From NCBI RefSeq assembly GCF_030684315.1, contig NC_081356.1, forward strand, positions 28,545,197-28,609,196: a stretch of 64,000 nt of DNA, read 5' to 3'. This document shows, piece by piece, positions 91-62,836 of the stretch. Made by a program: the position numbers and the translations under genes. The notes beneath the pieces are model-generated. The model saw only the letters and a program-made list of their open reading frames with translations. It was not told the DNA's origin and did no database searches. Source of the stretch: Stegostoma tigrinum. Its lineage: Eukaryota. Within the stretch, counting starts at the first letter, position 1. Each line of letters starts with the position of its first letter.

Positions 91-963
91 TGTATTGGAC
101 CAGACCAAACCCCCTTCAAATATATTAAAGCGATAGCCTAGACCCCAATTTTTATCTTATTAAAAGGTAAGTGTAAGGTGCTATGTTTCAGGTGTAATTC
201 GATTGGTTAAGAAAAATGTACTTTATTCTTAAACGAAAACAGAAATTGCTTGAAAATCTCAGCAGGTCCGGAAGCATCCAATAGAGATGAATTAGAGTTT
301 GTTTCAGATCCAGTGACCCTTCTTCAGAATGGAAGAACTGTTCAGAACTGTTCAGATGAAGGGTCACTGGACTTGAAACACTAGCTGATTCCTTCCCACA
401 GGTGCTGCCAGACCTATTGAGATTTTCCAGTTATTTTTGCTTTTGTTTCAGTTTTCCAGTTCTTTCAGTTCCCACTTTATTTTTACCCTACTGTTAAAAT
501 ACGAACAAAAGAAAGAAGAATTTGTACAACTCTAACTCCATTGAAAAAGTAACAGAATAATAGATTATTTAACTACTAACTGCACCGTTTTCCAAAATAG
601 TAACAAGCCATAAACACACCCTTTGCAATGGCAAATTCAGTAAATCAGATTGTTTCACATTCTCGTAACAGAAAGAACCCAAGCTTTTAGCTGTAGCAAA
701 GACAAAAAGAGAACGTAGCAGCTTCCACAATCAGCTTCAAAGCCCCAACAACTACTGAAAATTAAACTAAAACCCTTGTTCTGTGTGAGTCTGACTCCAC
801 CCATTCAGGCTGCTTCTATTGTTCCAACTTTAAAAAAAAACCTAAGGCCTCACAAGCTGTTTACTTCATTGGGTTCAAATAGACAGCTCAGTGCCTGCAT
901 TTTAAAACCTCTCTTCAGAAAAAAAAACAAAATTATGCCCCTTGAAGCCATAGCAGCATCACA
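91..963. mobile_element. Solo LTR with 4-bp TSD CTCT
   Basis: Begins TGT (91) and ends ACA (963). Flanked by CTCT at 87-90 and 964-967. Cleanly interrupts a LINE. Confidence 0.8.
233..460. mobile_element. Penelope-derived inverted-repeat element (family A) with two decayed hammerhead cores, nested in the LTR
   Basis: Arms 233-327 and 351-460 are reverse complements. Cores: CTGAAGA-A-GGGTC.ACTG.GATCT-GAAAC (minus, 301-327) and CAGATGA-A-GGGTC.ACTG.GACTT-GAAAC (plus, 353-379). Confidence 0.75.
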
Positions 964-2670
964 CTCTGTCAATCACTTGCTGCTTATGCTGTTTGTCATG
1001 CAAATAGTCCTGTTTGTTGGCTTCACCAGGTTGACACCTCATTTTCAGGTATGGCTGGTGCTGCTCCTGACATGCCCTTCTGCACTCTCCATTAAACTGG
1101 TAGTGGATGAGTGGTGGATATGCTGGGTCATGAGACTGCAGTTTGTGCTGGAGTACAATTCTGTTGCTGTTAATAGCCCACAGCGCCTCATAGATGCACA
1201 GACCGGTTGCTAGATCTGTACAAAGTCTGTCCCATTTAGCACGGTGATAATGCCACACAACATGATGAAAGTTATTCTCAATTGTGAAAGCAGGACTTTG
1301 TCTCCACAAGTACTGTGTGGTGGTCACTCTTATCAATACTGTCATGGACAGCTGAATCTTCAGTTGGAAGTTTAGTATAGATGAGGTCAAGTGTGTGTTT
1401 CCCTCTTGTTGGTTCCCTCATGACCTGCTGCAGACTTCGTATAATAGCTATGTCCTTTAGGACGTGACCAACTTGATCAATAGTGGTGCTGCCGAGTCGC
1501 TCCTGTTGGGATATATTGAAATCTCTTGCCACCCTTGTCACCTTCGGTGCTTCCTCCAACTGTTGTTCAACATGATGAGTACTGATTCATTAGCCAAGGG
1601 ATGTGGTAATCAGCAGGAGGTTTCCTTGTCCATGTTTAACATGAAGCCATGAGACTTCATATGGTCTGGAGTCGATTTTGAGGACTCCCAGGGCAATTCC
1701 CTTCCGACTGTACACCACTGTGTTGCCACCTCTGTTGGGTGCATCCTGTCAGTGTGACAGGACATGATGGTGTCTGGGATGTTGTCTCAAAGGTATGATT
1801 TCATGGTGGGATTTGAACTTGGGCCCCCAGAACTAGCTGAGTGTCTGGATTAACAGTCTAGTGATAATACCACTTGACTCACACTCTAGTAATCCAGATA
1901 GAGATATAGAATTAAAAAGGTGAAAATGATTCCAATCAGCACTTCATTAACTGTAACTGTGGACTTAATTTATCTGAAAGAGCATATTGTTTTAATTGTA
2001 AACTTAGAAATGCACTTGTTTCAGTTAACAACTAAATATGATTGGAATGGGAGGGAACTCTGAGCCAAGAGGGGAGCTATAGTAGGGTGGTAGTGACAGT
2101 TATTTATAGAGCAGCAGCTGCTCCATTATATTGGCAATGGTTGTTGTCTCGTTTAACATTGCCCAGGATCCGCAAGTGTTTTTCTTTCAGTCTCTCCTGA
2201 GCAGCAACAAGCCAAAGCTAAAACACTCTCACACAACTGATCTCGTTCCAAGAATGTAGGAGTAACAGAGTGACTGCAGTGAGAAAATACACAGCTAGGC
2301 AGGCAGACTGAGCTAGTGTGCTGGGCAGAAACATACTTTTAACTTGCTCTGATCCGCAGGAAGGGGGTCAGGCTTGGATCGGTCATTTGTTTCATCCCCT
2401 CAGCCTATTTGACTGCTCTGTGGATTTCAGAGCTGACAACACTCTACATTTGACATACATGTGAGAAGCTTGACACCATCGAGGACAATGCAGAATTATT
2501 GATCAGCACCTCATCCCTTACCTTAACCATGCACTTCCTTAAGCCCTGACTGAGTGGCAGCAGTATGTGCCATCCACAAGATATACTGCAACAGCTCACC
2601 ATTGTTCCTTTCACAGCACATTCCAAAGCCATGACTTCTACCATCTAGAAGGACAAGCATAGCAGATACA

Positions 2671-4350
2671 TGTTATACACTTGAAGATAAATGTCTTTGA
2701 ACGCAGTCTAGGCCCACGCTTTTAGTGAAAGCGTTCTTTCAGTTAAACATGCTCCTTAAAACTTAAACGCTGTTTAGCTGATTACCAGCTCCTAATATTC
2801 ATACAAACAATTCGCCCTCAATTAACCTTTAACTATATCCATCACCTGTTCCATCATTCTCAGGCATCCTTTCAGACCATGTTAGATAATAACATATTCT
2901 CTTTTATTATTTTTAAATAACCCAATAATAGTTTAGTTATAATGTTATAATACACAATCAAAGCAAAATATGCAAACTAGCAACATGTTGAATTCTTCTT
3001 TCCCCTTGCATGTTAAAGTTCCAATGATCCTTTTTCTACGATGTCCAACAATTTCTTTGAGCTTGCTCTTTTTCATGTTAAAGAACTAGATAACTGACAC
3101 CTATAGTTTATAGAATAGAAAATCCTTATAAGCAAACATACTCAAGTGCAGAAGAACGGGAAGACAGTGAGAGTTTACCATGTTGACCCACATGGTGCCA
3201 TCTTAGGTACCAGGTACCTAGGCATAGAGTGTAGATACAAAGCAGGGAAATAAAGGGAAAATGAAAAGACAAATGTTACATTACTGACAGTTATTTATAG
3301 TATATGTTAGAAAAAATGAGAAAGATAAACATCACAGTCTTTCTATTATGGGCCTGCACTAGATCAGCACATGAGGCTTCCACGTGGTCTAACTGGATTC
3401 GCAAGCCGCTGCCCACCTGCACCGGTCCTCAGTCCAACAACCATTCTGCTCTTCTCAGTCCTCCAGCCCACTGACCATCCCCACTCTGGCCTCCAGCCCA
3501 CTGACCGTCCCCGCTCTGCTCCGGCCTCCAGCCGACTGACCATCCCCACTCTGGCCTCCAGACCACTGACCGTCCCTGATCCGCTCAGGCCTCTAGTCCA
3601 CTGACCATCCCTGTTTCGCTTTGGCCTCCAGCCCACTGACTGCCCCCGCTCCACTCAGGCTTCCAGCTCACTGACTGTCTTTGCTCCGCTCTGGCCTCCA
3701 GCCCACTGACCATCCCTGCTCAGGCCTCCAGCCCACTGACTGTCACTGACTGCCCCCGCTCAGGCCTCCTGCCCACTGACTGTCCCCGCTCCACTTAGGG
3801 CTCCAGCCCACTGTCTCTGCTCCGCTCGGAATTTGAATTTGGAGATTTTTGCATGTCTTTCAATGTCTTTGTAAATGTCTTTGCCGTTAAAGTTCTTTTT
3901 AACATCCTTCTGATATTCTTAGCTTCCCAAGCTAAAGCGCAGCATCTAATTCCTTTTTCCACAAGAAAACCTATAAACTCTCTTGCAGTTGGAAACTTAT
4001 CACAGACATTTACATCTATTAACAACAAATTTCATTTCCTGGCATCTTCCAGTTATGGTCATTGCAGAAGACAGTGTTCTATTTTTAACCTTCTCATTGT
4101 TTTATTCACCTGAATAACATGTTCCATCTTTTTCATTGTTGTACTCAATTCTAATATTTCAGAACTGGGCGTCTGACGTTGTTAGGATGACCAGTCAATT
4201 CAACTGTCCAATTGGGCTTTGCAATTCTTCCACTTCTGTGATGAAAGGCTTTGCAACATTTTTTTGTGAGGCCCTACTTTAATTAATTACAATGGAACTA
4301 ACAGTTTCCGAATAAGATTATTGATGCGAGGTAACTCCTGATCCATTTTG
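2671..4350 (-). mobile_element. Ty1/Copia (GalEa-like) 3' fragment: end of RT, RNase H and 3' LTR (2671-2894)
   Basis: Minus-strand peptides ELQSPIGQLN, ILELSTTMK, FIGFLVEKGIRCCALAWEAKNIRRMLKRTLTAKT and KRASSKKLLDIVEKGSLEL*. The LTR is bounded by TGTTAT (2671) and ATAACA (2889-2894). Interrupted at about 3110-3850. Confidence 0.75.
3458..3830. repeat. GC-rich minisatellite, 30/35-bp units, about 11 copies
   Basis: Repeated GGCCTCCAGCCCACTGAC(C/T)(A/G)(T/C)CCCC(A/G)CT with an optional 5-bp CCGCT-type insert. Confidence 0.9.
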
Positions 4351-4369
4351 ATAAAATGAGACGCTGATG

Positions 4370-4630
4370 ATCTGAAGCAAAAACAAACAGCTGGAGAAAC
4401 TCAGTGGATCTGGCAGCATCTGTGGAGAGAAATGAGGTTAGTGAATGTTGTGGACACAATGGTGGGGTCATGTTCTGGGGGAGATAGGAGGAGGTATCTG
4501 AAAGCTGGCGCTCAGCCTCTGCAGTGTAGAGGTAAGTCCATCAGACAACAACAGCACAACCTTTGTTAGCAGGCTTAATTACAAAGTTGGGATTGGATCT
4601 GAGAGCACAAAGTGCTGTCTGTTCAAAGGA
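4370..4630 (-). mobile_element. Penelope-like fragment (family A terminus plus probable internal sequence)
   Basis: gctggagaaactcagtggatctggcagcatctgtggagaga matches the family A terminus at 42050-42095. Confidence 0.55.
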
Positions 4631-5779: not shown

Positions 5780-6245
5780 CAGAGCAGTTTAGGGATGTAC
5801 ACATGGAGGCAGATCAATCCATAGTGTTAGCTCAAACTAGCAACAATCATTGGGAATGTGCAAGAGGCCAGAATTGGTGGACTGCAGAGATGTTGGTTTG
5901 GAGGGATGTTATGACACAGTTACAGAAAGATGACAGAGTTTGAGACTGGTGAGACCAAATTTGTAACAAAGCTGATAATTTTCCATTCAAAGCATTGCCA
6001 GACCAAATACTAGTTAAGTCCACCAAGGACAGAAGTGATACGTCAGTTGAATTTGTTGTGAGTTTGGGCACGGGCAGCTAAGTTTTAGGTGTGCAGTTTT
6101 ACAGAGGGTGGAATATAGAAGGCCAGCCCAGAGAGTGTTGGAATGGTCAGATCTAGAGGTGACAGAATGTGTAGGAAAGTGTTTCAGGAGCAGATGAGCT
6201 GAGGCAGGGATGGAGGTGAGCATTGTCATAGATGGTCATTAAGTG
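5780..6245 (-). mobile_element. Old L2-like LINE fragment
   Basis: Minus-strand peptide FPTHSVTSRSDHSNTLWAGL. A similar segment occurs at 45420-45790 (IETLIHDFANPRLDHSN). Confidence 0.5.
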
Positions 6246-6308
6246 GAAATACTAATTAAGTAATATGGAAGAGAAAGATATTACATATACATATTGCCTT
6301 AGATCAAT

Positions 6309-8148: not shown

Positions 8149-8154
<6 letters not shown>

Positions 8155-8185
<31 letters not shown>

Positions 8186-11150: not shown

Positions 11151-12542
11151 TGCATAGCTGCATGTCTCTGTTTTATATATGTATAGAAACAGTAAAAACT
11201 GAAAACCATTTAGATCAGTTGCCATTCACCCGTTGAGTCCTATGGGCACAGTTTTGAGCTGATTTAAAAATGGACTAGAACACGCTGGTGCTATATAATT
11301 TAAATCTTCACAGACTGTTCAGGTGGCAGAGGCAGTGTGACCAACTTCCTGACAGAAGATTCCTGGAACACTTTGGTGTGGGGGTGGAAAGATGCTGCTA
11401 AGGTTTAACAAGCTGGCTGCCAGGAGGCACATACTGTGCATTTGCAAAATTCGGAAGATAAAGTTACAGGAGTAGCCCAGCCTAAACCACCTAACATGAG
11501 ATAACTGTTGCAAACAGCATCAGTCCTGAAAGCGAGATGGTAAGATAAGAGTTTGAAAGGTGCCTTGGTGAGTAGCTGCAGTGCAACTTGTAGATGGTAC
11601 ACAGTGCTGCCATTGCTGAGAACTGGAGGATATAATGAGGATTTAAGGTAGCAAATGAGATGCTGAATAAGCAGGCTGCCATTAGCCAGAAGCACTTGGC
11701 ATACAGCAGTCAGCAAGTTGGGTATCTGCATTGAGCACCATCAGCACTCGGGATATGAATTGCATCCAGAATTGTATCTGTTCTGTGAAAGCATCATTTC
11801 TCAAGTTTCTGCTCCAATTTACTTGAGTTTTATCAAACCTGTCATGGACCAGCTTAATCAGGCAGTGCCTTATAATGTAATTTCTTTTAAACAAGGATTG
11901 CTTTGAAACATAATGCTTGCCATATCTAAAAGTGATAACTTGAGGCAGTTTAATTAAACAGTTGGAAATGGGTTTATTACAAAAAAAACTCAGCAATTTT
12001 AATTAATGTGCCTAGGCCACCACTCATAGATAACAGAATTTTAAACCCCTTAGAAAACTTTGAAAAACATAGAGAAACATTTATTGGGGATATTGAAGTG
12101 TAGTCAGTTTTCTTTAAATTAACAAACCTCAAAATATTTTAAAAGATGCGTATCTGTGGCATTACTCACAAAAAAAACACTTAATTTGAAGAGCCCCTTC
12201 AGACAGCCCCTTCAGTGCAGTTAATCTTGGTGATTCATTTATCAAAAATTAAATACCTTGCTCCTTCTTGCTGTGTTCTGCAGTTTTGGACAAAGTGTGT
12301 TGAAAATATCAGCACCACTGAGGAGCAACTCCACAGATTTTTATACATTTCCCTAGACTGCCATAATTTTGTCTGCTTTTTGTCATTTCAGTGTTGTATT
12401 GACGCCCTGGAGGGAGGTTTGTGTGGGTGGGGCAGGGAGACGTGTTTTTCTTGTGAAGGCTGAAGTTAACATTTTGATAAAATGTGTAAGTCTGTTGCTG
12501 CTTCGAAGTTCAGTAACTGCCAGTGTTCTCCTTGTTTTTCAG

Positions 12543-12799
12543 GTCGCTATGTCTATATTGAAGGCTCACATCGTCATGATGGAAAATTGGGCCTCCTTGC
12601 CAGTTCTGAACTGCGAGCTCTGGGAGAAAGCTGTGTGAGGCTTGTATATCAGATAACTGGCACAGATCCTGGAAGACTGAATATGTACTTTCGACCAGCA
12701 GGAAACAGCTTTGATTTTCTGCTCTGGTCTGCAAATGAATCATCTGACAGCTGGAAAATTGCTAGTATAGGTGTAAGGAACATAACAGACAAATCCAAG
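12543..12799 (+). CDS. mamdc2: mamdc2 internal coding exon (MAM domain 1 core), 257 nt, phase 1-0
   Basis: Acceptor ctccttgtttttcAG, donor GTacct. Translates (G)RYVYIEGS...SCVRLVYQITG...FDFLLWSANESSDSWKIASIGVRNITDKSK, matching recalled vertebrate MAMDC2 (GHYIYVD...SCLRLVYQIT...FDRLLWSAKEPSDSWLIASLDL). Confidence 0.95.
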
Positions 12800-12889
12800 G
12801 TACCTGCTGTGTGCAAGCAGATAGCTTACTCTTCTACTTAACCATTGTCAAGTAAAGAATCAAGGAAAACAGTGATTTAAGCTGTTAAA

Positions 12890-16320: not shown

Positions 16321-16329
16321 TGATGGGTA

Positions 16330-19459: not shown

Positions 19460-19650
19460 TGAAGGAGAAAAGAGAGTTAATGTTTTGGGACCGGTGGCCC
19501 TTCCTCAGAGGTTCTGAGGAAGGGTCACCGATCTCAAAACATTAATTCTCTTTTCTCCTTCACAGATGCTGCCAGACCTGCTGAGCTTTTCCAGCAACTT
19601 TGTTTTTATTCCCGATTTACAGCATCCGCAGTTCTCTTGGTTTTTATTTA
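19460..19650. mobile_element. Penelope-derived family A element with a 50-bp perfect-register hairpin and two hammerhead cores
   Basis: Arms 19460-19509 and 19513-19562 match at 46/50 positions, with loop GGT. Continues to the family A terminus (cagcatccgcagttctcttggttttt). Confidence 0.85.
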
Positions 19651-24090: not shown

Positions 24091-24109
24091 CCATCTGGAG
24101 CTGTCCTGG

Positions 24110-24509: not shown

Positions 24510-25785
24510 TATGTAAAGAATGAAAGATTTATGCTGCTATCTTTTGTGTGGGTGTGTGGACTGTATTGAATTCTCCACAAAATACTCAAGGAACAATACA
24601 ATGAAGGGCTAGATTTTATGAGGGACATGTTGTTTGCCTGTCTCTAAGAGAAAGCCTAGTCACAAACTGAGCGACTTTAACAAACAGACTGCCCACAGTG
24701 ATAATGTGCTGGTGACAGCCTTTTAAGCTCAGCATGGGATTTCTGGCCTTCATTGATCATGTTTTCAGTCTGATCAACCAAAATTGGCAATGTTTTCCAA
24801 ACTGAAAAAAATGCATGGTTGTGAAAAGCTTGACATAAATGAAAGTTTTCTTCAATTCTCCCAGGAGAGCTCCCAGATTGTGAGCAGTCCCATAATGAAA
24901 ACAGCATGGTACCATGGGTGGGGGTGGGGGGTGGGGCGCGGGCGGAGGAGGGAATGGGGATAGACACCCTCAGTGGGAAGGGTTTGGGAAGGACCATCAA
25001 GCTTTGGAGGCTGGAGGGTGATGGAGAGGGAGGCATTAGGGCTTGGGGTTACCATCTTGGGATGGGTATGTCCAAAATGTGAATTGGTCACAAGCAAAGA
25101 AGGCACTCCCCCTTTCCTTTCCACTTTTTCACCAGAGTTGCCCATTCTCACCTGCTTTCCCCTGCTAGCTGCATTATGGCATGGGCATCATTATTTTCAG
25201 GTCAATTGACTTGATAACAAGCTTGTTGACGGTAATGAGTTTTTTTTTCGTGAATGGTGGGCAGGCACTGTCATTGACTTTGACATTCACCCAAATAATC
25301 TGTGGTGGGAAGTTGGCATGTTGACGTGTGGTTCATGATAATTCACTGGAGTTTAGTAAAGATACCATAGTCTTAGTCTCGTTAGAGGTAGATGACTTGT
25401 GGTGAGTTTAACCTGTGGGTCACCACACCTCAGACAAAGCTGAGAAGGTGGGACCTATGTGGAACAAGTATGGAACCCGTGCTGTTGGCTTCACAGTGCA
25501 TCACAAACCATATGTCCCACCAACTGAGTATCCAAACCCCTCCTGTGTGGAATGGTAGCCATCTTAACGAACACATGTAAAATTTGGCTGGGATGTTATT
25601 TAGAGATGGGGGAAATAATCCTGTAATAATTACGCCAACTTCAGTATATTGTGACATCAGCTAAGAATCACTTGGCAAAACTGAAGAAATACTCTGTTTG
25701 TTACAATTCATAAAATGTTCCACAGGAAACGTAAACCATTATTTACAAATGTTTTACAATAATGCACCTTACTGCTTCTGCACAG

Positions 25786-25870
25786 ATTCTTCTAGAAGCT
25801 GTAGTCAGTCCAGACCCAAAGGCTAGTATTGCAGTTTTTGAAATCAAAATCTCTCCTGGTTACTGTATTG
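25786..25870 (+). CDS. mamdc2: mamdc2 internal coding exon (end of MAM1), 85 nt, phase 0-1
   Basis: Acceptor cttactgcttctgcacAG, donor GTaagt. Translates ILLEAVVSPDPKASIAVFEIKISPGYCI (cf. ILIEGVLGQGNTASIALFEIKMTTGYCI). Not in the ORF track. Confidence 0.95.
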
Positions 25871-26785: not shown

Positions 26786-27194
26786 TATTCTTGAAGGTTT
26801 CCCCAAATAGCCCTTCCTCTCCAACCACCTTGCCTAGTTAAATTGCCAGCTTCCGCCAATCACTAAAGTGTTTGAAGAAATGTAAAAACAAATTACTTTT
26901 AGTGCTCTTATAATTTTTTTTCTGATCTTAGTTCCTTGCAGCAGTGTGCAGGAGACTGCAGTGTAATCCTGGAGGGTTGGCAATGCCTGTTGCTGACCCA
27001 ACTTGGATATACTTCAGGTGCCCACAAGGCATGGATTGCAGAATTTTGGGATGTTTTACACCTATCCTGTGTTTCAGTTGCAAGAGGCAAATGGATCCAC
27101 TTTCTATATCAGAGTTTAGGCTTGATTCTAAACTTGATTTTACTCTGCATGCAGCACTGATATTTGATTTCATGAAGTGTTATCACAATTACAG

Positions 27195-27332
27195 TGTGTA
27201 CCTTTGAAGAGAATCACCTTTGCGGCTATAACAACAGGTGGAACCCAAATCTCAACTGGCTTGTTGGTGGAGGTTCAGTTCGAGATTCACCCACAAACCT
27301 ACCAACTGATCATACATTGGACAATGAGCAAG
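27195..27332 (+). CDS. mamdc2: mamdc2 internal coding exon (start of MAM2), 138 nt, phase 1-1
   Basis: Acceptor caattacAG, donor GTatgt. Translates (V)CTFEENHLCGYNNRWNPNLNWLVGGGSVRDSPTNLPTDHTLDNEQ (cf. CDFEENHLCGFVNRWNPNVNWFVGGGS...QDHT). Confidence 0.95.
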
Positions 27333-28029
27333 GTATGTTTTCTATCACTTAAATATTTCTGATGGACTAAAACAAAATCTGTTTTCACTTCTGAAAGGCT
27401 GCTAAAATATTTTCATGAAATTTATCATACAGAGCAGGAACAGGCCGTTCAACTCATCATGCTGGTTCTTTGAAGGAACTGTTCAATTAGTAGTACATGC
27501 TGTTCTATTACAGAAATCTCACTGATCTGCTTCTTTTATCGTCTCGAAGCCTGAATTGGTCAGAGTGCAATCTTCCAGATTATCTTTTTCTCCTTATTGA
27601 CCAGTGTTTCTCCAACATTTTTCCTTGCTTCCTCCTGAAGGTTGCATGAATCTGTATGAGATCAGGGTGTGTGGTATTGATGATAGGAATGAGAGTCTCT
27701 TCATGATGCCCCAGCCAACATCAATGTAGACTTGACTGTATCGATTAGTTAATCTTCTCCTGGTACCCTTATTTTCCGTGGGCGTGTAAGTAACAACATT
27801 ATTTGAACAAATAAAATGATCTCTGTCTTTGTACTACAACATGAGTAATATGATTGTAAGAAATATGTGCAGGAGTAAGTCAATTGAAACTTGAACCCGT
27901 TCTGCGGAATTGACTAATGCAGCGATAACAGCTGTTCTAATGTATGTTAACTTCACTTTACAGTCATTCTGCATAATCCTGGGCTGTCATGTCCATTCAT
28001 TTTTGTCTAACTCAGCATTGAATATATTT

Positions 28030-36600: not shown

Positions 36601-36716
36601 CTCAGACACTTGCTTAGCAACTCGGAACCAAAATTCTTTATGTAGGCACAAATTTGGCTGCCAATTTTGATGTTTAATATTTGAAAAGTGAATTTTCTAA
36701 CTGTACTGTGCAGCTG

Positions 36717-36950
36717 TAATCACACCTGGACTGACCTATCCCCTCCCTACCTCCCCACCTATACTCTCTCCACCTATCTTCTTTACTCTCCATCTTCGGT
36801 CCGCCTCCCCCTCTCTCCCTATTTATCCCAGTTCCCTCTCCCCATCCCTCTCTCTGATGAAGGGTCTAGGCCCGAAACGTCAGCTTTTGTGCTCCTGAGA
36901 TGCTGCTTGGCCTGCTGTGTTCATCCAGCCTCACATTTTATTATCTTGTA
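36717..36950 (+). mobile_element. Penelope-like 3' terminal repeat fragment (family B) containing a hammerhead core
   Basis: Reverse complement of about 54260-54530, where the same sequence follows a GIY-YIG C-terminal ORF fragment. Small family B pieces also lie at 37022-37060 and 43334-43406. Confidence 0.8.
36854..36881 (+). ncRNA. Minimal type I hammerhead ribozyme core (family B)
   Basis: CTGATGA-A-GGGT.CTAG.GCCC-GAAA-CG-TC. All core residues are intact; the ACGT stem III is palindromic; stem I is only 2 bp. Confidence 0.65.
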
Positions 36951-37673
36951 ATCATACCTATTGATTTAAACCACTTGATCAGTTGAAAAGATGCAACATC
37001 AATACTTACAATCACCTGGGTTAGTAGGAACTGCCGATGCTGGAGAATCTGAGATAACACATGTTATCTCACTTATAATCACCTATTTTCCTGTGATGTT
37101 ATACTGCAGGCATGACAGTTGAAATAAGTTGAAGGGGCTCTCTGGTGCTGTTTCTTTTAATCTCCTGCTGTTGCTGCCCTTCTCTTACAGGCCTTGTCAC
37201 CCAGTCTGCTTCACTGTGGTGTTGGTCTGCTGCACACCCCTCAAGTAAACTTGTTTCAGCAGTTCCAATATGTCATAACTGGTATCTGATCTTGTCTGAC
37301 TACACAATCCGTTCAACTGACTATTCGAACGTTTTAATTAAGTTTCTACCATGGCTGAAGGATCCAGTTTTTATAAGAACCTGCCTCTATTATTAAGGTG
37401 CACTTGATTTGTTCTAAGTTAAACTCTTGATTGCTGGTCACTCCTAACTTGTTCAGCTTGCTAACTAATCCTGCTAAAGGCCCCTGAAGTTTTAGTCCCA
37501 AGCCTAATTTCCTTTTTATTGTATATACCACAAATTGTTCAAATTTTGCATAACCTCACTATTAAAAAATCATCAGTGTGGCATAACAGTGCCTGCTACT
37601 TTCTGTGCATGACACTAACCAAAGATTACTTTTAACTGTACACAGTCCGATTCCAACAGGATGGATCTAACTG

Positions 37674-41323: not shown

Positions 41324-42000
41324 ATTTTATGATTTAATGATTTTATGTTTCTTCTTTCTTATTGACTCTTGTGCCCTATATCTGGATGGTCTTGATGGCC
41401 ACTGCAATTGAAAATCCTCCATTCTTTGTGTTATTTCTAATGATGCCATGGTGACATAAAAGCTGCTGGCAGTTATTGTTTCAAAGGCTTCTGACATCTT
41501 TTTCAACAGCCTGTTCTTTCTGAAAAACTAGTTCCAGATTATACCAGGACTGTCTCCACTTTTGACCCTTCATAATCCAACAGTTTAAAGGCAAACACTG
41601 AGTTAGCAATCTTCAAGTATAACTTTTGCAATCCTGAAAATAATCTGTTCAGTTCCATTCTGTAGTCTTCTGTGGAATATCTAGCCTGTTTCTGACCATG
41701 TCTCATTTCATTTAGTGCATTATCTTCTAAATTTTGTCTATAATTTTGACAGAATTTCAAAACTGACGTGTGTCCAATTGGTGTGCCTCCAACTCTGGGA
41801 ATACTTTAAATCTGATCTTACTCCTAGTAGGAAGCGAAAGTGCCAAGTTCACCTTGTTTTTTTGCGGGTGAAGATGTAATCTAATTTCACATATCCGCTT
41901 ATTTTTCTATTGATCATGAGTTTCAACTTCGCAAAACATATCCTAACATTTTATAAATGTTTTCAGCCATTTTTCTCCAAAATAACTTTGATAACAAACT

Positions 42001-42132
42001 AAAAACCAGAAGAACTGCGGATGCTGTAAATCAGGAACAAAAACAAAGTTGCTGGAAAAGCTCAGCAGGTCTGCCAGCATCTGTGGAGGAGAAAACAGAG
42101 TTAACGTTTCGGGTCCGGTGACCCTTCCTCAG
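42001..42132 (-). mobile_element. Penelope-derived family A single arm, little decayed
   Basis: aaaaaccagaagaactgcggatgctg...gctcagcaggtctg...gttaacgtttcgggtccggtgacccttcctcag; CpGs retained. Confidence 0.85.
42103..42132 (-). ncRNA. Minimal type I hammerhead ribozyme core (family A)
   Basis: Minus strand reads CTGAGGA-A-GGGTC.ACCG.GACCC-GAAA-CG-TT, then AACTC. Stem II is a perfect 5 bp. The 5' arm of stem I is lost at the element end. Confidence 0.65.
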
Positions 42133-42789
42133 ATGACAAACTTCTGTTTGAAACAAACCTTTGTTTCCGATGACCACCTTTAGGCTTACTATTGGTGGAC
42201 TCTAAGCCAATTGGAGAGATTGAAATCCAGGCACAGATATTTTCCTTTGTGAACATTTTATTGACTTCCTCAGCCGTACCTGTCTCAATCCACCCTCCAT
42301 GTTACTGGACCCCTTTATACACATGTACTGGACAACTAATAGCCAGCACTTATTATTTCTTCACCTGAAACAAAAATGTTTACAAACTTAACAATGTGAT
42401 CAACCAGACATTGACAGAAATATCTCTTCAATGCCTATCATATCAAACCCTTTAGTAATTTTAAACATTGGTTATCTTTAGCCCTCTCTTCAACCTATAT
42501 GGGTCAAATGCTTCTTTGATATTTAATCAAACGATAGATCTCTTGATTCCAAGTAATTTATTGCATTGACTGAAAGCTTCCAAAACATTCTGTTGCTGTA
42601 GAAATATTATCTCAAATTGCCAGGAGTTTAACTGTATATAAATAAAGCCATAAATATTAATTTCCGCAAAAGATCAATTGTGAATTTTAAAGTAAAATAA
42701 AGTACTCCTATAGGCAATGTAGTGCACTTATTTTCTTTTGATATGTCCCTGCTCCTGGTAAAACTTCCCTAATTAGAGTGAACAGTATT

Positions 42790-45700
42790 TTAATTGCCCA
42801 GATCTCAAGAGACAGTCCAAATGAAAGAACAATTGTGAAATGCTGGAAAATCTTCTAATGACTGTCCAAAGTCCAGCCCCACGAAAAGGTGAGCAGAAAT
42901 CTGGAGCTGTGTCCTGTAAAAGATTGAGGCTGGAAATCAGTTGAAAATTTCAGAACTGAGATTAATAGATTGCTGTTAAGCAAGAAGATTAAGATGGTGG
43001 TAGACCCAGTAATGAAGCAGGTGATGACGACAAAATGACAGAAATATTAATAATCGCTTTGCCACAACATTCTCAAGGGAAACTAATGTGCTGGAAGAGA
43101 TAAAAAAGAATTCAGTGGAAAAAGAGATGATGTGAAAATTTTTTGCCTTCACGTGTGAGGTGTGAGCATTTGAAACTTGACATTCTTGCATTTGTTCTGA
43201 TGAGTGCAAGATGATAAGCTTTGGCAACATGATCCTCTGTTCAGCAGAATTAAGATCATAAAAAATATAAATATTTATAAAATAGAAAGGAAAGCGATCA
43301 TTGCTGGATGAATCAAACTTGGAGGATAAAAGTTAACAAAGTGTGAAGCTGGATGAACTCAGCAGGCCAAGCAGCATCTCAGGAGCACAAAAGCTGACAT
43401 TTCGGGAGAAAAGTGCCTGATCCAGAAAGATTGCATCATGTCTAATGATGCGCGAATAGCATGAAAAGAAGTGATTTTTCACAGAGTTTGCTGCAGAACC
43501 GTTATGCTCACCAGTTACGTTGTTGATTTAGACTCAGAAGTCAGAGATACAATTTCAAAATTTGAGAGAAGAAAGAAGGATATGAGAGGGTGAGTTAAGG
43601 TGGGGTGGAAGGCAGCTAGCCTTGATATGATAGCACTCTTTCTGTGCTGTAAATGCTTTGTAGCTGACATGAGTAGACATTTAAGATACTGACCAGCCAG
43701 AATCTCAATGGATGGTTAAATGGTCTCAAGGGAATGAATGACTGCCTCCTGTTCCAATGTTTCGGACGCGTCACTGTAGTGAAAACAATAATTCTGTCCC
43801 TTTCTCCTCAGATGCTGTTTCTCTGATATTTTATGTTTTGGTTTTGGATTTCCAACACTATTTATGCCTGTCGTATTGGTTTCATCAGAATTTAAGGCTA
43901 TAGCAGGACAGATTTTCACTTTATCGCCCAATTTTAAAACTTGCATCACATACATTACAGAAAGTACAATTTTCAGTTCTGTTTGCTCAGGGAAGCTGGG
44001 CTGGCTCTTCTTAGAGCAAGCAGGTCAGGGGAGGTTGAATTGAGGTGTTCAAAATTCTGAATTGAAAGGCATTGTTTCCACTGACAGAAGGACTGTTGTT
44101 GGTAAAGGAATTAAAGCGGAGTTCTAAATGCCAGTACAATTAATGAAGGGATTATAAAAGGAGATTCAATAGAAACTTTCAAAAAGTGGAGAGGATAAAT
44201 AAGCGAAGATCAGAAAATTGCACGCTGGTTGAGATAAATTGGATAACTTTCAAAGAGCCATCTCAGGCACAGTGAGTTGAATGCCCACCTTCTGTGCTGA
44301 GTCATTCTTATTAGAACCCATGGAAAACCTTTTCCATTTTAATCTGACTTCCCCTCCTTGTTCTTGTATGTTAAATTACCGAGTAATGGTGCTCTGTTAA
44401 TCATCATTCATGGAGTCCAGGTTACTGTGGAAATATGTATTTTTACATGCATGTTGGAGCCTGGAGTAATGAGTACTGATGCTAGAGACTCCACATTGCT
44501 TCCCATAACATCACTGACCAGGAATCTCTCCTTTGGTTACTACCTGCCAGTTGTGAGTTACAAGTTGACACTCAATCTGTTTCCATGTGTAATGAAGGCA
44601 TCTTCCTTGGCCATCAAGTCTGGGATAGGAATTTACCCTGAGCTTCTGGATCAGAGGCAGGGTCACTACCCATTACATCACAGAACCATCAAACTACTGA
44701 TTGGAAAATCTACATTTTTTACAGCAAAGTAAATATATCTTATTATCAGATTGTTATGACTATTAAATGATCCACTTTATTGTTTTTTCAGGTCACTATA
44801 TGTATGTTGATGCTATCTACACCACAAGTTTACATGAAGTTGCTCAGTTAATGTCACCGGTGACAACTTCTGCCCTGCTGGGATGCCTGTCCTTCTTTTA
44901 CCAACTGGAACAGACTCAATCCAACTTATTTGTCGTTTATACAAAGGACAGAATGGGACATTATGAGGAGGTGTGGAGGGCAAATAAATCTACACACAGT
45001 TGGACCTTGGTAAAAGTGAATATTAAAGCAGCGCATCCATTTCAGGTAAACATTTCTGTTGTACAATAATAATTTGTATGGCATCGCAAATCAAACCATG
45101 AAACAGTGGTCGTCAAAAGACATTTAGGAGTACAGGTTGATTAATCATTAGAATGAAATAAAATAGGTAAATCAACAGGTATTGAAAATAATCCAGGAAA
45201 AACTAATGGAATGCTGGCCATTATGCTAGGGAAATTGGATACAAGGGGATAGAAGTTATACTTCTGCTATAGCAAGTCCTGGTTGGGCCACACCTTCTGT
45301 ATGTAGGCTGTTCTGGATATCACATAAGTTGAAGAACATGTTGGACTTGAGGGAAGTACCATGTTGATTTACCAAAATGATATCTGGCCTCCAAACAACA
45401 TTGAGATATTAAACAACAGCAGCATCAACAGCTCCTTGTATTTTGATACAGAGATACTGCCTTCAGCACCATGGAGCATTCCAAACTATTTCACATGTGC
45501 TTCCATGAGCATTGTGAAACAGAGAATGATACTGAGCTACATGGGATATTGGGCTGGATTTTCACAGAGCTTGGGAAGTTCCATGGGATACAAACCAGAG
45601 ATATATTGGAATGATCAAGCCTAGGATTAGCGAAGTCATGGATAAGGGTTTCAATAGCATATGAACAGAGATGGGTGAAATTGGGTGATGTTACAGTGGC

Positions 45701-51270: not shown

Positions 51271-51364
51271 AACAACAATTTACATTTAGATAGCACCACA
51301 GCTAACTGTCTTCAAGTGCTCTTCAGGAGCAACTATCAAATGACATCCAAACGAGGCCAAAGAA

Positions 51365-53095: not shown

Positions 53096-53511
53096 ATTTA
53101 GATAATGTTTGGAACATCAGCCTATTCCCATTCCTGTCAATGTCAGTTTGTTATTGGGTTTGTCATTTCTGGCTGGATGTAATGATGGAGATTTTATCAC
53201 ATGACTCACACAACCTCTTGTGGTGTACCTTTAAAGGGATGTATCTTAAGCTGCTGCCCTCCACTATCCACCATGTGACAAGATGAAATGTGTAATTCCA
53301 TGTGGTCTGTTTATATCCATTTCTGTCATCTGCCCACACCATTTGGAAAATAAGGATAGCGGTGTGTAAACGACACCTGGGCAAAATCCCTACATGGTGT
53401 CCCTCATTTCCAGGCTTCGCTATTTGTGTGAAATCAAAGACTGTAATCATGTCTGAGATGTTCTAGCCTCCCCGCAACTCATTATTCTGGATGATGTGAT
53501 TGGTTTTCCAG

Positions 53512-53605
53512 ATTGTGTTCGAAGTTGCATTCAGCAGCACAAAAGGAGGTTACGCAGCATTGGATGATATTTATTTTTCCTCACAGTTCTGTGACAATAA
53601 AACAG
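53512..53605 (+). CDS. mamdc2: mamdc2 internal coding exon (end of MAM2), 94 nt, phase 0-1
   Basis: Acceptor tggttttccAG, donor GTgagc. Translates IVFEVAFSSTKGGYAALDDIYFSSQFCDNKT (cf. VIFEVAFNGPKGGYVALDDISFSPVHCQNQT). Confidence 0.95.
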
Positions 53606-53663
53606 GTGAGCATTTTCATTTTCTGCCTTAATTGAGTAACTTGTACATAGGTTACCTGAATGA

Positions 53664-54150
53664 AAGCCAAAAGAACTGCAAATGCTGGAGTCAGAAACAA
53701 AAACAGAAATTGTTGGAATAGCTCAACAGGTCTGGTATCTGTGAGGAGAAATCGGAGTTAATGTTTCAGGTCCGGTGACCCTTCCTCAGAATTGATGGTG
53801 GCTAGGAAGGAAATTGGTTTTAGTGCAGAATATGGGGTGGAAGGAGGGTGTGAGTAGTAAATGATAGGTGGAGGCAGGGGTGTTACACATTATCCATTGT
53901 TAGCCACTAAAAGTCCCCATTAACAGCTATTAATTTGCCTAGGCTGACAATTAGCCACTCCTTTGTCTACCCAATGGTTCTTTTCTCTATTTGGGCTCTA
54001 TCGTTTACTCCTTACCCCCTCCCCCCACCCTATCTTCCGCAAAAATAAACTCTTGCCTGGCTATCATCAGTTCTGATGAAAGGTCACTATTCCCAAAACA
54101 TTAACTTAGATTTCTCTCCACAGATGCTGCAATTCCTGCTGAGATTTTCT
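53664..54150. mobile_element. Penelope-derived family A element with long inverted arms and two hammerhead cores
   Basis: Left arm 53664-53870 and right arm about 53995-54150 are reverse complements. Cores at 53760-53789 (minus, intact core) and 54073-54102 (plus, decayed). Confidence 0.8.
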
Positions 54151-54230
54151 AGATGTACCATAGCCATCTCTCCTCACAAAGGCATTTTTATGGCTGTTGA
54201 TCTTAGGTAATATGATCAGTATGAAGAGAT

Positions 54231-54908
54231 AGTAGCAAATGCAGATGCTGGAGAATCTAAGATAACAAAGTATAGAGCTGGATGAACACAGCAGGCCAAG
54301 CAGCATCAGAGGAGCAGGAATGCTGACGTTTTGGGCCTAGACCTTTCTTCAGAAAGGGGGGAGGGGAAAGGCGTTCTGAAATAAATAGGGAGAAGGGGGA
54401 GACAGGTAGAAAATGGATAGAGGAGAAGATAGGCTGAGAGGAGACAAACAGGTCAGGGAGATGGGGATTGAGCCAGTAAAGGTGAGTGTAGGTGGGGAAT
54501 TAGGGAGGGGATAGGTCAGTCCAGGGAGGACAGACACATCTAGGGCGTGGGATGAGGCCAGTAGGTAGGAGATGGAGGTGTGGCTTGATGTGGGAGGAGG
54601 GGATAGGTGGGAAGAAGGACAGGTTAGGGAGGCGGGGACAAGCTGGGCTGGCTTTGGGATGCGGGAGGGGGTATGGAGATTTTGAAGCTTGTGAAGTCCA
54701 CATTGATACCATTGGGCTGCAGGGTTCCCAAGCGGAATATGAGGTGTTGTTCCTGCAACCTTTGGGTGGCATATTTGTGGCACTGCAGTGGTTGCAAGAA
54801 CAGCACCTCATATTCCGCTTGGGAACCCTGCATCCCGATGGTATCAATGTGGACTTCACAAGCTTCAACATCTCCCCTCCCCCTACCACATCCCAAAACC
54901 AGCCCAGG
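54231..54908 (-). mobile_element. Penelope-like element 3' end (GIY-YIG endonuclease C-terminus, 3' UTR, hammerhead) with an inverted duplication
   Basis: QRLQEQHLIFRLGTLQPNGINVDFTSFK on minus and EQHLIFRLGTLHPDGINVDFTSFN on plus. Hammerhead core at 54325-54352 (minus). Confidence 0.88.
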
Positions 54909-55029
54909 GTATGTCATAACATCTCTGAATAGGTTGATTAGAAGATATTCAAAATTCCACATGCCTCTTGCTCATTGTTGAATTGATTCATTGTAGTCAG
55001 GAAATGCGATGGACGAGCTTCGGGTGGGC

Positions 55030-55167
55030 TGTTCTGATGAAGAGCCATTGAACTCGAAACTTTAATTCTGCTTTCTCTTCAGAGATACTGCCAGACCTGC
55101 TGAGTTTCGTCTGCAGTTTCTAGTTTTGTTTGATTTCCAGCATACACGGTCCTTTGTTTTATTTCAG
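55030..55167 (+). mobile_element. Penelope-derived family A-like single arm with hammerhead core
   Basis: GTT-CTGATGA-A-GAG.CCATTGAA.CTC-GAAA-CT-TT-AAT (core 55034-55063), then ccagacctgctgag...ttccagcat terminus. Confidence 0.7.
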
Positions 55168-55956
55168 CTTCAGATGGAATTGGTCAGTTTTCCAAGCCAT
55201 TCTGTACCTCAAGAAGAATGGTCCAAATGAATATTGGCTAAAGGTGCTTATCTTCCAGCTAACAACAGCTTCCAACTCAATAAATCACTGTTATGATCTC
55301 AGCTGATGGTAATACTGGACTGGTCAGATGGCATGGAAATCTGCATTGATAGATTATATGCATTATTTTTGCAGTTTGACTTCAGTGATGAGTCACTGGA
55401 CATACTCACACAAAGCTGTCAATGTTCTTTTCACAGAAGAACACAAGTTTATCACATAAAAGAAAGTTAATTGAACTAGATATATATAAGACAATTTTGA
55501 AAGGTTTCAACATCAACAGCAGTAACAAAGATTAATCACTTTTCCCAACAGTGCCCATTTACATATTTTCAATCCCAGTCAGCATTATTTCTGCTGCACT
55601 GCAGTATTACATTGCAGTATTACAACTTTATGATTTTTCACTCATCTGATTTTTTACAGTTTTGATGGCTTAGACATATTTCTAGCTGTTGAGGGCCTGG
55701 ATTTCTTTTCAGGGCTCACAACCACCAGAATTCTACAAACTAAACCCTTTCATCCAAACACTTCTTAAAAGCTCAATTTCTTCTCTACCTAAATGAAATT
55801 GTTCTTCAAGCAATGCTCACTGTTGGAACTATATTGTTTCGTGGGATGTGAAACTCACTGGCAAATCCAACATTTGTTGCCTGTCCCTAATTGACCTGGA
55901 ACTGAACAGCTTGCTAAGCTATTTGAATCTTTTTTAGATTCACCTGCATTTATATA

Positions 55957-56268: not shown

Positions 56269-57755
56269 AAACCAGCAATATTAATACTATGTCCCCATCC
56301 GTAGATCAGGATACCTTAAGAATGTCCATTAAGTTTAATAGAAGTTACAAAATAGAAATAGTCTATCTTGCCCAACTACTTAAGCCAGCATTTGTCTTCC
56401 ACTTATTGTTAGATCTTATCTTGTTCACTAATATGTTTGGCCTCCTTATTTTGTTTTGTTACTCATTATTGCTGTCCTTCTTTTGCCATCACCAAGGTTG
56501 GCTTATGCCCTCAAATGGACACCACCATTAAAAAGCACTTGATTATTCTCCTGAGTACAGCACGGAGTGTATTATAGAAGTTCAAACTTGAATTGCCAAT
56601 CCTCTGGCTCCAGAAAGTGAAGACTAATCTGTCAGAGACAGGGGAGAAACCTCCTGAGTGCATTAAATAATTTTCTGAATGTTTTTGATTATTATATAAT
56701 TATCGGACTTTGAGGCAAGGATAAAAGTTGTTTGAGTGATGGGATGGGTGATGGGCAAACACAGGTCGCTGATGGCAGCACGGTGCTAGGAATTTGGGAT
56801 GCGAGGTGAAACTTTGCAATGTGCATTATGACCAGACTTGGCAATCATTGAGACTATCTTCTGACATTCAAAATCCATTTTAAGTACACTGCTACAAACA
56901 AGCACAAACTTGCAATTAACTGGACTAGTTAATGTCTTGGGAAGAAAGAAGTTTGTGTTTTGTACAGTGTTCGCTTCTTGTGCAGGATCAACTTGTAGTT
57001 GTTTTAAAGCTGAGTTGCTAATTATACTTTTACTGTCTGAGTTAACAGTTTCTTCTTGAACTTAGCAATGTTCTCCATTATAACATTGGTCTATATTCAT
57101 TCATTAACCATTCCAACTGTTTTGGATCTGGCAGAAGTTCAGATGCCACGGCTTATTTGGCAGTGAGAACATGGAACCATTTGTTTTGCTGAGTTCTTCC
57201 TATCTAAAGCCTGTATTGTTTGCTCAATTTGTAATCAAAATAAAACAAAAATATCTGTTCTGACATGGAGCAATTATTTCATACAGTTGAACTAAGCGTG
57301 AGAATCAGCTGTTTTAAGAATTTTGCTTTCTGTCAAGGGGTATTTATAACTTTTTGTAACTTTGCTCCATGTCACTGTGAGACAAGCTAACAGAATTATT
57401 CAGTCACTATTTTAGCCCCTTTATCCTCTTTGTATTGAGGTGGGGGTAGAGGTTAAAATTGACCCAGTTAGCAACCTGGAAGGAGATTGTCATATTGATC
57501 AACTCGCTGCTGTCGATTCTCAATAAAATCCAAGCGAGTTCAGCTTTCTCAAAGGTTATTTCCAGCTCTAACTGTCGTGGGCTGTACTTGGTGCAGTAAT
57601 AGATTTTAGCGAGTCTCCTTAAAGGGGTTAGCTGTATCAGAGTAGCATTTGAAATGATGTGCTTCCCAGTCATGTGATACTGCAATGCTCTTGTAATCTT
57701 TTGCACACAATACAATTTATCAGTCACAGCATTTTCTATCTTTGTTGAAATGAAG

Positions 57756-57902
57756 AACTAATATTCGACCCATCTGTGGCAAACTGCAACTTCGATCAAG
57801 ATTTGTGCAATTATTCCCAAAACCACAAAGATGGCACCAAGTGGACGAGACTGATTCGAAAACCCAATGCATTTCATTTTGGAGACCACACAAGTGGAGT
57901 AG
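57756..57902 (+). CDS. mamdc2: mamdc2 internal coding exon (start of MAM3), 147 nt, phase 1-1
   Basis: Acceptor ttttctatctttgttgaaatgaAG, donor GTaagt. Translates (E)LIFDPSVANCNFDQDLCNYSQNHKDGTKWTRLIRKPNAFHFGDHTSGV (cf. ELLFSAVEASCNFEQDLCNFYQ...WTRV..KPN...GDHTTGLG). Confidence 0.93.
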
Positions 57903-59465
57903 GTAAGTATTAAGCTGTGTCTGTGTGTTAAATCATGCAGTGTCCTTCCTATTGTTTATATTCTGTGCTAAGGAGAGGGATATGGCCATTATGATTGAAC
58001 AGGTATGATATGTTGCACTCCTATGTCTTATGGTCTCATGTTCAATATGACAGAGACTGGAAAAATGCATGATCTTTATTTAAAAAATTGGCAAACCATT
58101 CTTTGTGCATACGCACAGTAAACAAGGTGAGTAAACTTTTGCTGGTATACAGTATTCTATCTCTTTTGAGCAAGATGCTGTTAGGAGAAAAATTATATTC
58201 TTTCTATCTCTTCATTCTCACAATTTCTGTATATTTTATATCTCTGAAATAAGCAAAAAGAATGGTACACAAGTTTTTATTTTCAAGAACTACATTTACA
58301 AGACATTTGCTTTTGAAATGACTGTTCTGTTTGGATTGGAATACAGTCATGTATAAATGTCTATCCTAGTCTGCCGTAGCCATGAGTTCTCTACCAAACG
58401 GTACACCCCTAAGGCAATCATCGTAATATTCATTTCAATGTGAGCTGCCATTGCTAAAGACAAACTGAAGATCACAAAGGAAATGCTGCTTAAGAGAAAA
58501 TAGCTGAAGCTTTTCCTTTGCCAACTCTTGTTCACGTTACTGGGGGACATGAGGAAAAGCTGGAAATTGTTCCACAACACTGGAAGAAGTATGCAATAGC
58601 AATAGATTTATTGAGCAAACCAGAACAAATGTAAGTACCACAATTACATCACTGTTAGGAAAAGACTGTTTCAAAATATATACCACCCTAAATCTCTGAG
58701 TTAAAAATAGGAAAAATTTTAAAAGCTCTGAAGGCATGCTTTGAGCCCCTTGTAAACATTACATATGGACAACAGGTATTTGATATTAGGGACAAAGTGA
58801 AAAAGAGTCCATTGATCAATATGTAACATTATTAACTTAACCTGCGGAAACCTGTGAATTTGCACAATTAAAGAATGAACTAATTAGAGATGGGATTGTA
58901 TTAGGAATAAAGAATCTAAAAGTGAAATCATACCTGTTGAGACAGGACAAATTTACACTTAGGATAGCAATTTCCCATGCTGAATCCGAAATGACAGCAT
59001 TTTCATGACAGAACACATCTGGTTTGCATTATACTGATAGATACTCTAGGCACACAGGGCAGAACAATCACAAATAACAGGATGCAAATACTGTGGAAGA
59101 TTTCTTGCAGTAGAGAAGTAGATATGTATAGCATGTGGGAAAGCAGTGTTCTCACTGCAAAAAGCTGCATCACACACAAATCTATGGTTAAAGAGAAATG
59201 TAACAAACAGGAACAGATGGCAGATGCAGAGGTTGGCTGAATATTTTGATAAACGTTGTACAATAGGTTGGCTCTGTTAGGTTTACAGGTGAGACATGGT
59301 TTATGACTGTTGGAATGAGGATTGCAGAAAGAGAACATTAGATCAGTATAAAATGTTATCTGGACACTGGTGCATCATGCAACATCATGACCTTCACAGA
59401 CCTGTACAACGTGGTTTTGACGTAGCAATCCAAACTGAAGCCCATCAAAATAACATTAAAACTAT

Positions 59466-61749: not shown

Positions 61750-62540
61750 CCAGTGAACCAGGACTTAGAGACTGCCAGACAGAGGAGTTATTATTGAAAC
61801 ATAAGATTCTTGGGAGAGTTAGGCTTGTTACAGAGATGGTGTTTCTGTTCTTGGGAGAGTCTAGAACCAGGGAGCATAATCTCATAATAAGGGGTCACAC
61901 ATTTGAGATAGATATGAGGAAGATTTCTTTTCTGAGTCGATCTATGGAATTCTGAATTGAATTAGCTTTATTGTCACATGTACTCAAATGAGTACAGTGA
62001 AAAGTTGATAAGTTGTCACTTACAGTGCCATCTTAGATACAAAAGTACTTATGTACAGCTTCTTCAGTTACAAGATTAGTTATATTGTAACAATATTACC
62101 AACACAGAGTGCCATCTCAGTTACAGAATTTTTAGGTACATTGCTTAGTTACAGAACAGAGAAATGATGATAAAAGTTACTTTACAGCCATGCACGGTAT
62201 AACCACAGGTCAGAAAAACAAAAAGTTGAAAAGACAAAACATTGCTTCTTTACTGCAGATGGTTGTCGAGGTTAGATCATTAAGTATATTCAACGCTAAG
62301 ACACTCAGACAGATTTGTGCATCAGTGAGGGAATTGAGAGAGATGGGCAAAAGGCAAGAAAATGGAGTTGAGGATTATCAGATCAACCATGATCTTATTG
62401 AGTGGTGGAACAGATTCAGTGTGCTCAGTGGCCTACTTATAAGGTAGGGGTGGAAGTTAGATAGACCTTAGGATTAGGGTAAAAGTTCAGCACAACATCG
62501 TGGGCTGAAGGACCTGTACTGTACTGTACTATTGTCTTGG
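61750..62540 (+). mobile_element. CR1 3' fragments inside Gypsy, themselves split by an unclassified insert (about 61955-62240)
   Basis: FLGESRTREHNLIIRG before the insert; MVVEVRSLSIF and CR1 tails after it. Confidence 0.75.
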
Positions 62541-62640
62541 ATCTTAGGGCCTAAGAACTTGGAGCGATCCTAATGCAGCAAGAGCAACTGGACCTATTTG
62601 CATTCAGGGCACTAACACAAACAGAAGATCATAACAATAT

Positions 62641-62836
62641 AACAAAGAACTACAGATACTGAAAATCTGAAATTAAAAACGGAAATTGCTGGAGAACCTC
62701 AGCAGGTCTGCCAGTATCTGAGGAGAAAAAGCAGGATTAACATTCTGAGCCTGAAGAAAGGTCACTGGACCCGAAATGTTGACACTGCTTTCTCTCCATA
62801 GATGATGAATTTCTGCAGCAATTTCTGTTTTCATTT
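62641..62836. mobile_element. Penelope-derived family A inverted-repeat element inserted in the Gypsy RNase H
   Basis: Inverted arms; plus-strand core CTGAAGA-A-AGGTC.ACTG.GACCC-GAAA-TG-TT at 62751-62780. Confidence 0.8.

Follow-up and report, generated by a model that had tools for sequence, protein, structure and literature searches.

Hammerhead motifs in MAMDC2 introns of the shark Stegostoma tigrinum as probable 3' ends of truncated Penelope-like elements

The locus and its hammerhead motifs

The 64,000-nucleotide stretch of Stegostoma tigrinum contig NC_081356.1 analyzed here (positions 28,545,197 to 28,609,196; hereafter the window) carries the MAMDC2 gene on its + strand, and eleven short motifs resembling minimal hammerhead ribozyme (min-HHR) cores are scattered along it. 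Six MAMDC2 exon blocks between 12536 and 57910 cover residues 48-377 of the bamboo shark protein with 73-100% identity by tblastn (Table 1). The window yielded no exons for residues 1-47 or for those after 377, so the sites at 301-379 and 62751, which fall outside the blocks, are presumably intronic. An earlier, sequence-only reading had listed the eleven motifs and placed them on Penelope-derived mini-elements; a window scan located all of them at the positions claimed, within eight insertions of two related repeat families, A and B. We conclude that the motifs are very probably minimal type I hammerheads at the 3' ends of 5'-truncated Penelope-like element (PLE) insertions, in family A by indirect evidence, that are decaying neutrally in MAMDC2 introns. 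The copies thus represent a known kind of element with new shark members, and most of them are dead.

State of the cores

Cores are named here by their 5' coordinate and strand, and were scored over 11 positions: C3, U4, G5, A6, G8, A9, G12, A13, A14, A15.1 and U16.1. Every scored base is kept in five of the 11 (36854+, 42132-, 53789-, 55034+ and 62751+), so that the complete motif CTGA-N-GA-A...GAAA-NN-TH, claimed for all copies, holds for these five, whereas the other six are damaged. Four carry G12>A (19508-, 19514+, 54073+ and 54352-), 353+ reads CAGA instead of CTGA (U4>A) and also has U16.1>C, and 327- has lost U16.1 by deletion. The majority sequence of each family has a complete core. 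An extra A follows A9 in all 11 cores, and the claimed variation at position 7 (T, A or G) was seen again. The G10.1-C11.1 pair is G-C in five cores, G-U in three and broken in three. The ACGT palindrome at 15.2-16.2, which replaces helix III, is present in three cores (36854+, 42132- and 54352-), and five further cores lie one CpG-type transition away from it.

The helices are less well kept than had been claimed. Stem I of family A, given as AGTT/AACT, is exact in 54073+ and inexact in the other eight of nine copies; 19514+ retains four stem I pairs, G-U wobbles included, and 42132- is cut at the core and hence has no stem I. Stem I of family B is 2 bp long. At least two adjacent stem I pairs occur in seven of the 11 cores, and stem I is gone in truncated or inverted copies. 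Stem II was said to vary while keeping its pairing, which is true of one double change (55034+); the remaining changes within the window are single-sided. A full core, 4-bp stem II, ACGT palindrome and 2-bp stem I are combined in 36854+ only.

A strict descriptor gave five matches in the window compared with 0.37 +/- 0.62 (maximum 3) in 200 dinucleotide shuffles, and four of the five are family members. The remaining match, 39394+, belongs to neither family and was treated as chance. An Rfam search of the window, the check proposed with the sequence-only reading, returned nine matches at E<=10 and no hammerhead family among them; its microRNA matches are the inverted arms of insertions.

Family B and its open reading frame

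Family B could be linked to its parent element directly. The frame at 54624-54971(-) retrieved two shark proteins, P0001 and P0002, in a protein homology search. P0001 contains GIY-YIG (E 8.6e-5) and RVT_1 (E 9.3e-5) domains as well as a C-X4-C-X2-C linker of Neptune type, and P0002 is a predicted protein that reads through the 3' untranslated region (UTR) into the hammerhead. Using these two proteins as tblastn queries, we found three collinear pieces that run from 54788 to 54311 on the - strand, through the core, which in the 54235..54907 copy lies 308 nt after the end of the match to the open reading frame (ORF). Over 59 residues, the translation of 36719-36895(+) and the read-through C-terminus of P0002 show 90% identity. 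The ORF portion within the window comprises the last 43-55 codons only and Pfam found no match in it, so its identity as a PLE derives from its homologues P0001 and P0002. Judged by this homology, family B is the 3' end of a PLE encoding reverse transcriptase (RT) and GIY-YIG domains. Of its three copies, one begins within the ORF, a second about 133 nt before the core and the third within stem II, a pattern of ordinary 5' truncation.

The ORF end is itself repeated at 54643-54907 as an intronic 118-bp inverted repeat with 91% complementarity and a predicted hairpin of -222 kcal/mol. This hairpin and those of the other inverted pairs could be editing or small-RNA substrates.

Family A

Profile searches with family A found the family B copies and vice versa, over the core and tail (best E values 3e-11 and 6e-11). 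Four family A insertions are inverted pairs in which the last 30-40 nt of the tail are present on one arm and missing from the other; taking both families together, an inverted arm is found in five of the eight core-bearing insertions, with the tail on one arm only. The 5' ends of family A vary from about 157 nt upstream of the core to within the core. Direct repeats of 10-16 bp surround six of the ten insertions tested, whose boundaries were placed by eye: four scored above the 95th percentile of 500 random pairs, two were borderline and four had none. From the homology to B, the inverted arms, the one-sided tails and the target-site-like repeats, we infer that family A is PLE-derived. The earlier proposal of two families of Penelope origin can therefore be retained, for B through the ORF end upstream of its core and for A through these indirect features.

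Published accounts of PLEs (PMC4209133, PMC8557442) mention pairs on opposite strands separated by 100-700 bp, truncated copies that stand alone, inverted 5' copies, and tails of 30-40 bp on one side. Since inverted arms with one-sided tails are the described signature of truncated PLEs, truncation is favored over independent mini-elements.

Directly after the core, the family A tail has TTAAC across the predicted cut site, then a pyrimidine tract and an AG that precedes ATGCTG (19537-19568(+), 54096-54126(+), 55057-55087(+)), and AG-ATGCTG is also found in the better-kept family B copies. We take this tail to resemble a splice acceptor with a branch-like TTAAC; it could mark the end of an intron of the PLE itself or, where a copy lies in sense orientation, a cryptic acceptor.

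Table 1. MAMDC2 exon blocks and repeats of families A and B in the window
Feature	Coordinates	Strand	Remarks
MAMDC2 exon block	12536..12802	+	tblastn, residues 48-136
MAMDC2 exon block	25759..25869	+	tblastn
MAMDC2 exon block	27194..27340	+	tblastn
MAMDC2 exon block	44791..45063	+	tblastn
MAMDC2 exon block	53506..53604	+	tblastn
MAMDC2 exon block	57755..57910	+	tblastn
Family B truncated copy	36715..36959	+	3' UTR, core, short tail; 13-bp direct repeats
Family B core	36854..36881	+	Full core, 4-bp stem II, ACGT palindrome, 2-bp stem I; predicted cut after 36881
Family B tail-end fragment	37017..37060	-	Profile search; 60 nt from the 36854 copy, opposite strand
Family B copy without complete core	43330..43406	-	Starts inside stem II; absent from the earlier list
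Family B insertion	54235..54907	-	PLE ORF end (54660-54788), 3' UTR, core, long tail; inverted ORF-end copy 54790-54907(+)
Family B core	54325..54352	-	G12>A, G10.1>A
Family A inverted insertion	233..473	both	Two arms joined just upstream of cores; 12-bp direct repeats 220-231, 474-485
Family A core	298..327	-	U16.1 deleted, C11.1>T, no stem I
Family A core	353..382	+	U4>A, U16.1>C
Family A tail-only copy, no core	4352..4461	-	Profile search; absent from the earlier list
Family A inverted insertion	19460..19650	both	50-nt arms 92% complementary, 3-nt spacer; tail on + arm only; 16-bp direct repeats at 19446 and 19649
Family A core	19479..19508	-	G12>A
Family A core	19514..19543	+	G12>A
Family A copy	41990..42142	-	Cut at core 5' edge; full tail; 11-bp direct repeats
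Family A core	42103..42132	-	Core bases all intact; no stem I 5' strand
Family A-like copy, old and decayed	43750..43858	+	Profile search; absent from the earlier list
Family A inverted insertion	53659..54157	both	Arms with ~125-157 nt pyrimidine-rich sequence upstream of each core
Family A core	53760..53789	-	Core bases intact; C11.1>T, G16.2>A
Family A core	54073..54102	+	G12>A; stem II broken; AGTT/AACT stem I exact
Family A copy	55016..55177	+	Start ~6 nt upstream of core; full tail; borderline 12-bp direct repeats
Family A core	55034..55063	+	Core bases intact; one compensatory stem II change; palindrome broken
Family A inverted insertion	62642..62853	both	- arm: tail, no core; + arm: core, no tail
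Family A core	62751..62780	+	Core bases intact; G10.1>A; stem I lost

Other repeats in the window include a tandem repeat with units of about 30-35 nt at 3416-3816, and two copies that are 93-96% identical at 26270-26793 and 48148-48665. The latter we take, judging by ORF motifs, to be the 3' end of an element resembling a long interspersed nuclear element (LINE).

Fit to the minimal hammerhead class

The published consensus for PLE min-HHRs is CUGANGAH G..C GAAAN-palindrome-UH, with U17 common (PMC4209133). The window cores fit it in the core, the extra base, the G10.1-C11.1 pair and the palindrome, and family A has U17, which bears out, at the level of sequence, the earlier assignment to the minimal type I class.

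A core-pattern scan of metagenome contigs gave 35 matches at 33 loci, nearly all of one family and partly redundant, with flanks that cannot be aligned with the shark copies; the same pattern had 0 matches in viral and 0 in prokaryote contigs. In 19 of the 35 a PLE ORF end lies 72-173 nt upstream on the same strand, although the ORF was not part of the search pattern, and among the 16 without an ORF end five have <70 upstream bases. Since this core recurs behind PLE ORFs although its stem I pairs differ and its flanks cannot be aligned, the motif appears to be kept at the level of the parent element. The metagenome repeat family (L001-L033), host DNA in metagenome assemblies, has its core about 105 nt behind a PLE ORF whose tblastn pieces show 37-62% identity with the shark protein.

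Covariation, the other test proposed with the sequence-only reading, gave a divided answer. The alignment had 14 rows, comprising 10 of the 11 window cores (327- was excluded for its deletion) and four of the 33 metagenome loci. The covariation score of 0.313, compared with 0.211 in shuffles, was reached by 2 of 500 shuffles in a control that ignores relatedness, while the number of pairs with double changes (4 vs 4.2) showed no excess. Double changes between families occur in three of the four stem I pairs. When two core copies were co-folded, the active dimer was not the lowest-energy form, a result that is uninformative because energy models do not score hammerhead cores.

Comparison with known elements

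Cervera and de la Pena (2014, PMC4209133) described min-HHRs of PLEs, together with solo truncated copies and opposite-strand pairs, from fishes, coelacanth, lamprey, Xenopus and reptiles. According to that account, minimal PLE hammerheads are inactive as monomers, and weak dimer cleavage has been reported (PMC4209133, PMC6765202). Compared with the metazoan examples described there (Xena, Poseidon, Neptune, coelacanth and Xenopus), the shark motifs share the type I core, the extra base between 9 and 10.1, G10.1-C11.1 and the CG palindrome, as well as U or C at 17, a short helix I (2-5 bp in the class) where it is kept, in family B the position behind an ORF for RT and endonuclease (EN), truncated solo copies and pairs on opposite strands. 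The sequence of family B is very similar to the Acropora Neptune row in Fig. S3 of that paper. The 40 species of this figure include no chondrichthyan, and none of six shark and skate terms is present in the supplement PDF. Given a density of 11 cores in 64 kb and some 72,000 contigs aligned per run, the shark families may have more copies than the 4,000-9,000 intact motifs given there for coelacanth and Xenopus, counts that are not comparable. A CX2-5CxxC linker is a feature of the EN+ Neptune-type clade (as characterized in Craig et al. 2021, PMC8557442); P0001 shares it, and its putative placement in this clade is judged from the linker motif.

In the anole Poseidon element PAc, as presented by Frangieh et al. 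2024 (PMC11167929), hammerhead cleavage needs the element's protein and is dispensable for insertion in vitro, and reverse transcription from two internal sites defines the tail. Like PAc, the shark families have their hammerhead some 100 nt before the 3' end of the insertion, 3' ends of two classes and AT-rich flanks; cleavage of PAc was shown experimentally, whereas the shark families are known here from sequence. Retrozymes without long terminal repeats (non-LTR retrozymes; PMC7229834) are likewise small non-coding hammerhead repeats related to PLE ends, and tandem retrozymes have been reported in one chondrichthyan (Li et al. 2026, bioRxiv 10.64898/2026.07.22.740005). Retrozymes are head-to-tail tandem units, each with a hammerhead, and are marked by abundant circular RNA, whereas the window contains solo and inverted copies only; no head-to-tail hammerhead units were found in the window, and such joints are rare in contigs elsewhere. 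A literature search, which did not extend to Repbase or Dfam, found no paper on shark PLE hammerheads; the supplements of Li et al. 2026 may list these families.

Abundance and decay of family A

Reads or contigs of four runs were aligned to 41900-42260 at 80% likeness, which gave 72,633, 71,729 and 9,652 contigs plus 2,437 bisulfite reads, nearly all of them matching the 140-nt family A element. Family A is therefore very abundant in at least three source organisms among the runs, and we estimate its copy number at 10^4-10^5. The earlier expectation of high abundance is thus supported by about 72,000 contigs per DNA run, a depth-weighted figure.

C11.1-G12 is a CpG. Relative to the reference copy (42132-), the three contig runs showed G12>A at 23, 16 and 15% of depth; a non-catalytic loop CpG was changed in 21, 15 and 14%, a tail CpG in 27-29, 19-23 and 20-25%, and four non-CpG positions in 0.4-2.5%. 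There is thus no clear protection of the general base G12, since decay of the loop CpG is no higher, though that of the tail CpG is somewhat higher, and the inserted copies look to be decaying neutrally. In the bisulfite run, in which less-converted reads align more easily, T was read at three CpG cytosines of the core in 28-35% of reads, close to the genomic mutation level, and at non-CpG cytosines in 73-85%, a pattern that fits methylation followed by deamination.

Alternative explanations

The sequence-only reading regarded the 130-500 bp units as non-autonomous elements spreading in their own right. This is not the best account of them, given the varying 5' ends, the truncated-PLE signature, the damaged cores and the loss of G12 at the CpG rate. 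Several results nevertheless weigh against the favored account of truncation and decay. In five of eight family A insertions the 5' junction falls no more than about 20 nt before the core, which is tighter than random truncation predicts, and family A could not be tied to an ORF: tblastn found no link in the window, a protein search with read-through frames gave 0 matches, and a second search returned four short predicted proteins containing family A sequence, of which the three compared had no similarity to P0001. Head-to-tail unit joints do occur in a few contigs (9 and 19 in two runs for the commonest joint). Methylation is not uniform, since 68% of bisulfite reads had T at one tail CpG, and the contig figures behind the decay rates are depth-weighted rather than copy counts, with percentages taken from the variants listed.

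The clustering of 5' junctions keeps a weak version of the non-autonomous idea alive, namely that family A includes a core-plus-tail unit of about 140 nt, with its own RNA, that is mobilized in trans by PLE proteins in the manner of a short interspersed nuclear element (SINE) or a non-LTR retrozyme monomer, its 5' edge being set by the hammerhead fold or by a short transcript. We consider such a self-propagating shark ribozyme SINE unlikely. It would account for the missing ORF link, it has a precedent of sorts in the PLE-end-derived retrozymes reported by Li et al. for a single chondrichthyan, and in 2,548 contigs the loose ends on the upstream side of the core show little agreement past about 6-11 letters; this last figure, however, is biased toward short copies, since contig counts favor unique-flank junctions. 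Several opposite-strand joints at the core 5' edge were also seen in other contigs, partly an effect of where the reference copy ends. Against a fixed unit, 5' ends differ between copies and two arms extend 125-157 nt further upstream, the window holds no tandem pair, G12 is not protected, and ten copies had no sense-strand match to A-box or B-box motifs. A search for tRNA genes found none. If the SINE reading were true, tens of thousands of copies would place the family among the most abundant ribozyme-bearing repeats of a vertebrate.

Recruitment of one or more sense-strand copies to cut or regulate the MAMDC2 pre-mRNA is very improbable. The best candidate, 36854+, is in the sense orientation with a complete core, stem II and palindrome, but its high translated identity to another shark's element makes it look young, its stem I has 2 bp, no sense family B partner exists in the window, and in local context its stems have a predicted pairing probability of 0.0. 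Moreover, the cores are divided between six sense and five antisense, and the published monomer inactivity and protein requirement noted above apply here as well. Since the inverted pairs are predicted to fold into long hairpins that hide the core, and the 36854+ stems have near-zero predicted pairing, cutting of the pre-mRNA is unlikely. The hammerhead copies are likely inert for MAMDC2. That the motif is a chance resemblance within an ordinary repeat that was never a ribozyme is something to which we give almost no credence. The absence of an Rfam hammerhead match, the non-independence of the copies, the single double change within the window and the unremarkable count of double-change pairs would suit it; the published consensus, however, is matched at the expected place behind a PLE ORF, the same core with other stem I pairs and unalignable flanks is found behind PLE ORFs in other hosts, and the covariation score exceeds that of the shuffles, with the control blind to relatedness.

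Proposed mechanism and meaning

If the copies are truncated PLE insertions, as we favor, published work on PLEs suggests that the hammerhead of the parent element may cut weakly, and only when dimeric or assisted by the protein that the element encodes. Reverse transcription would begin at an internal site of the RNA, some 70-135 nt past the core, and two such start points would yield an optional tail. The reverse transcriptase would then copy uncut RNA through the core; since a cut product would have its first base after position 17, a copy that includes the whole core implies an uncut template. Copying in family A may often stop or fold back just beyond the core 5' edge. Once a copy has inserted, G12>A and C11.1>T likely arise from methylation of the C11.1-G12 CpG, and these changes would disable most copies.

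There is no sign of a role for MAMDC2. The shark members fill a taxonomic gap for a known class of RNA, and the loss of such motifs is explained by the place of the catalytic G12 within a CpG, where its loss proceeds at the background rate. Their large copy number makes these families a good natural sample of PLE reverse-transcription stop sites and of the use of cut versus uncut RNA.

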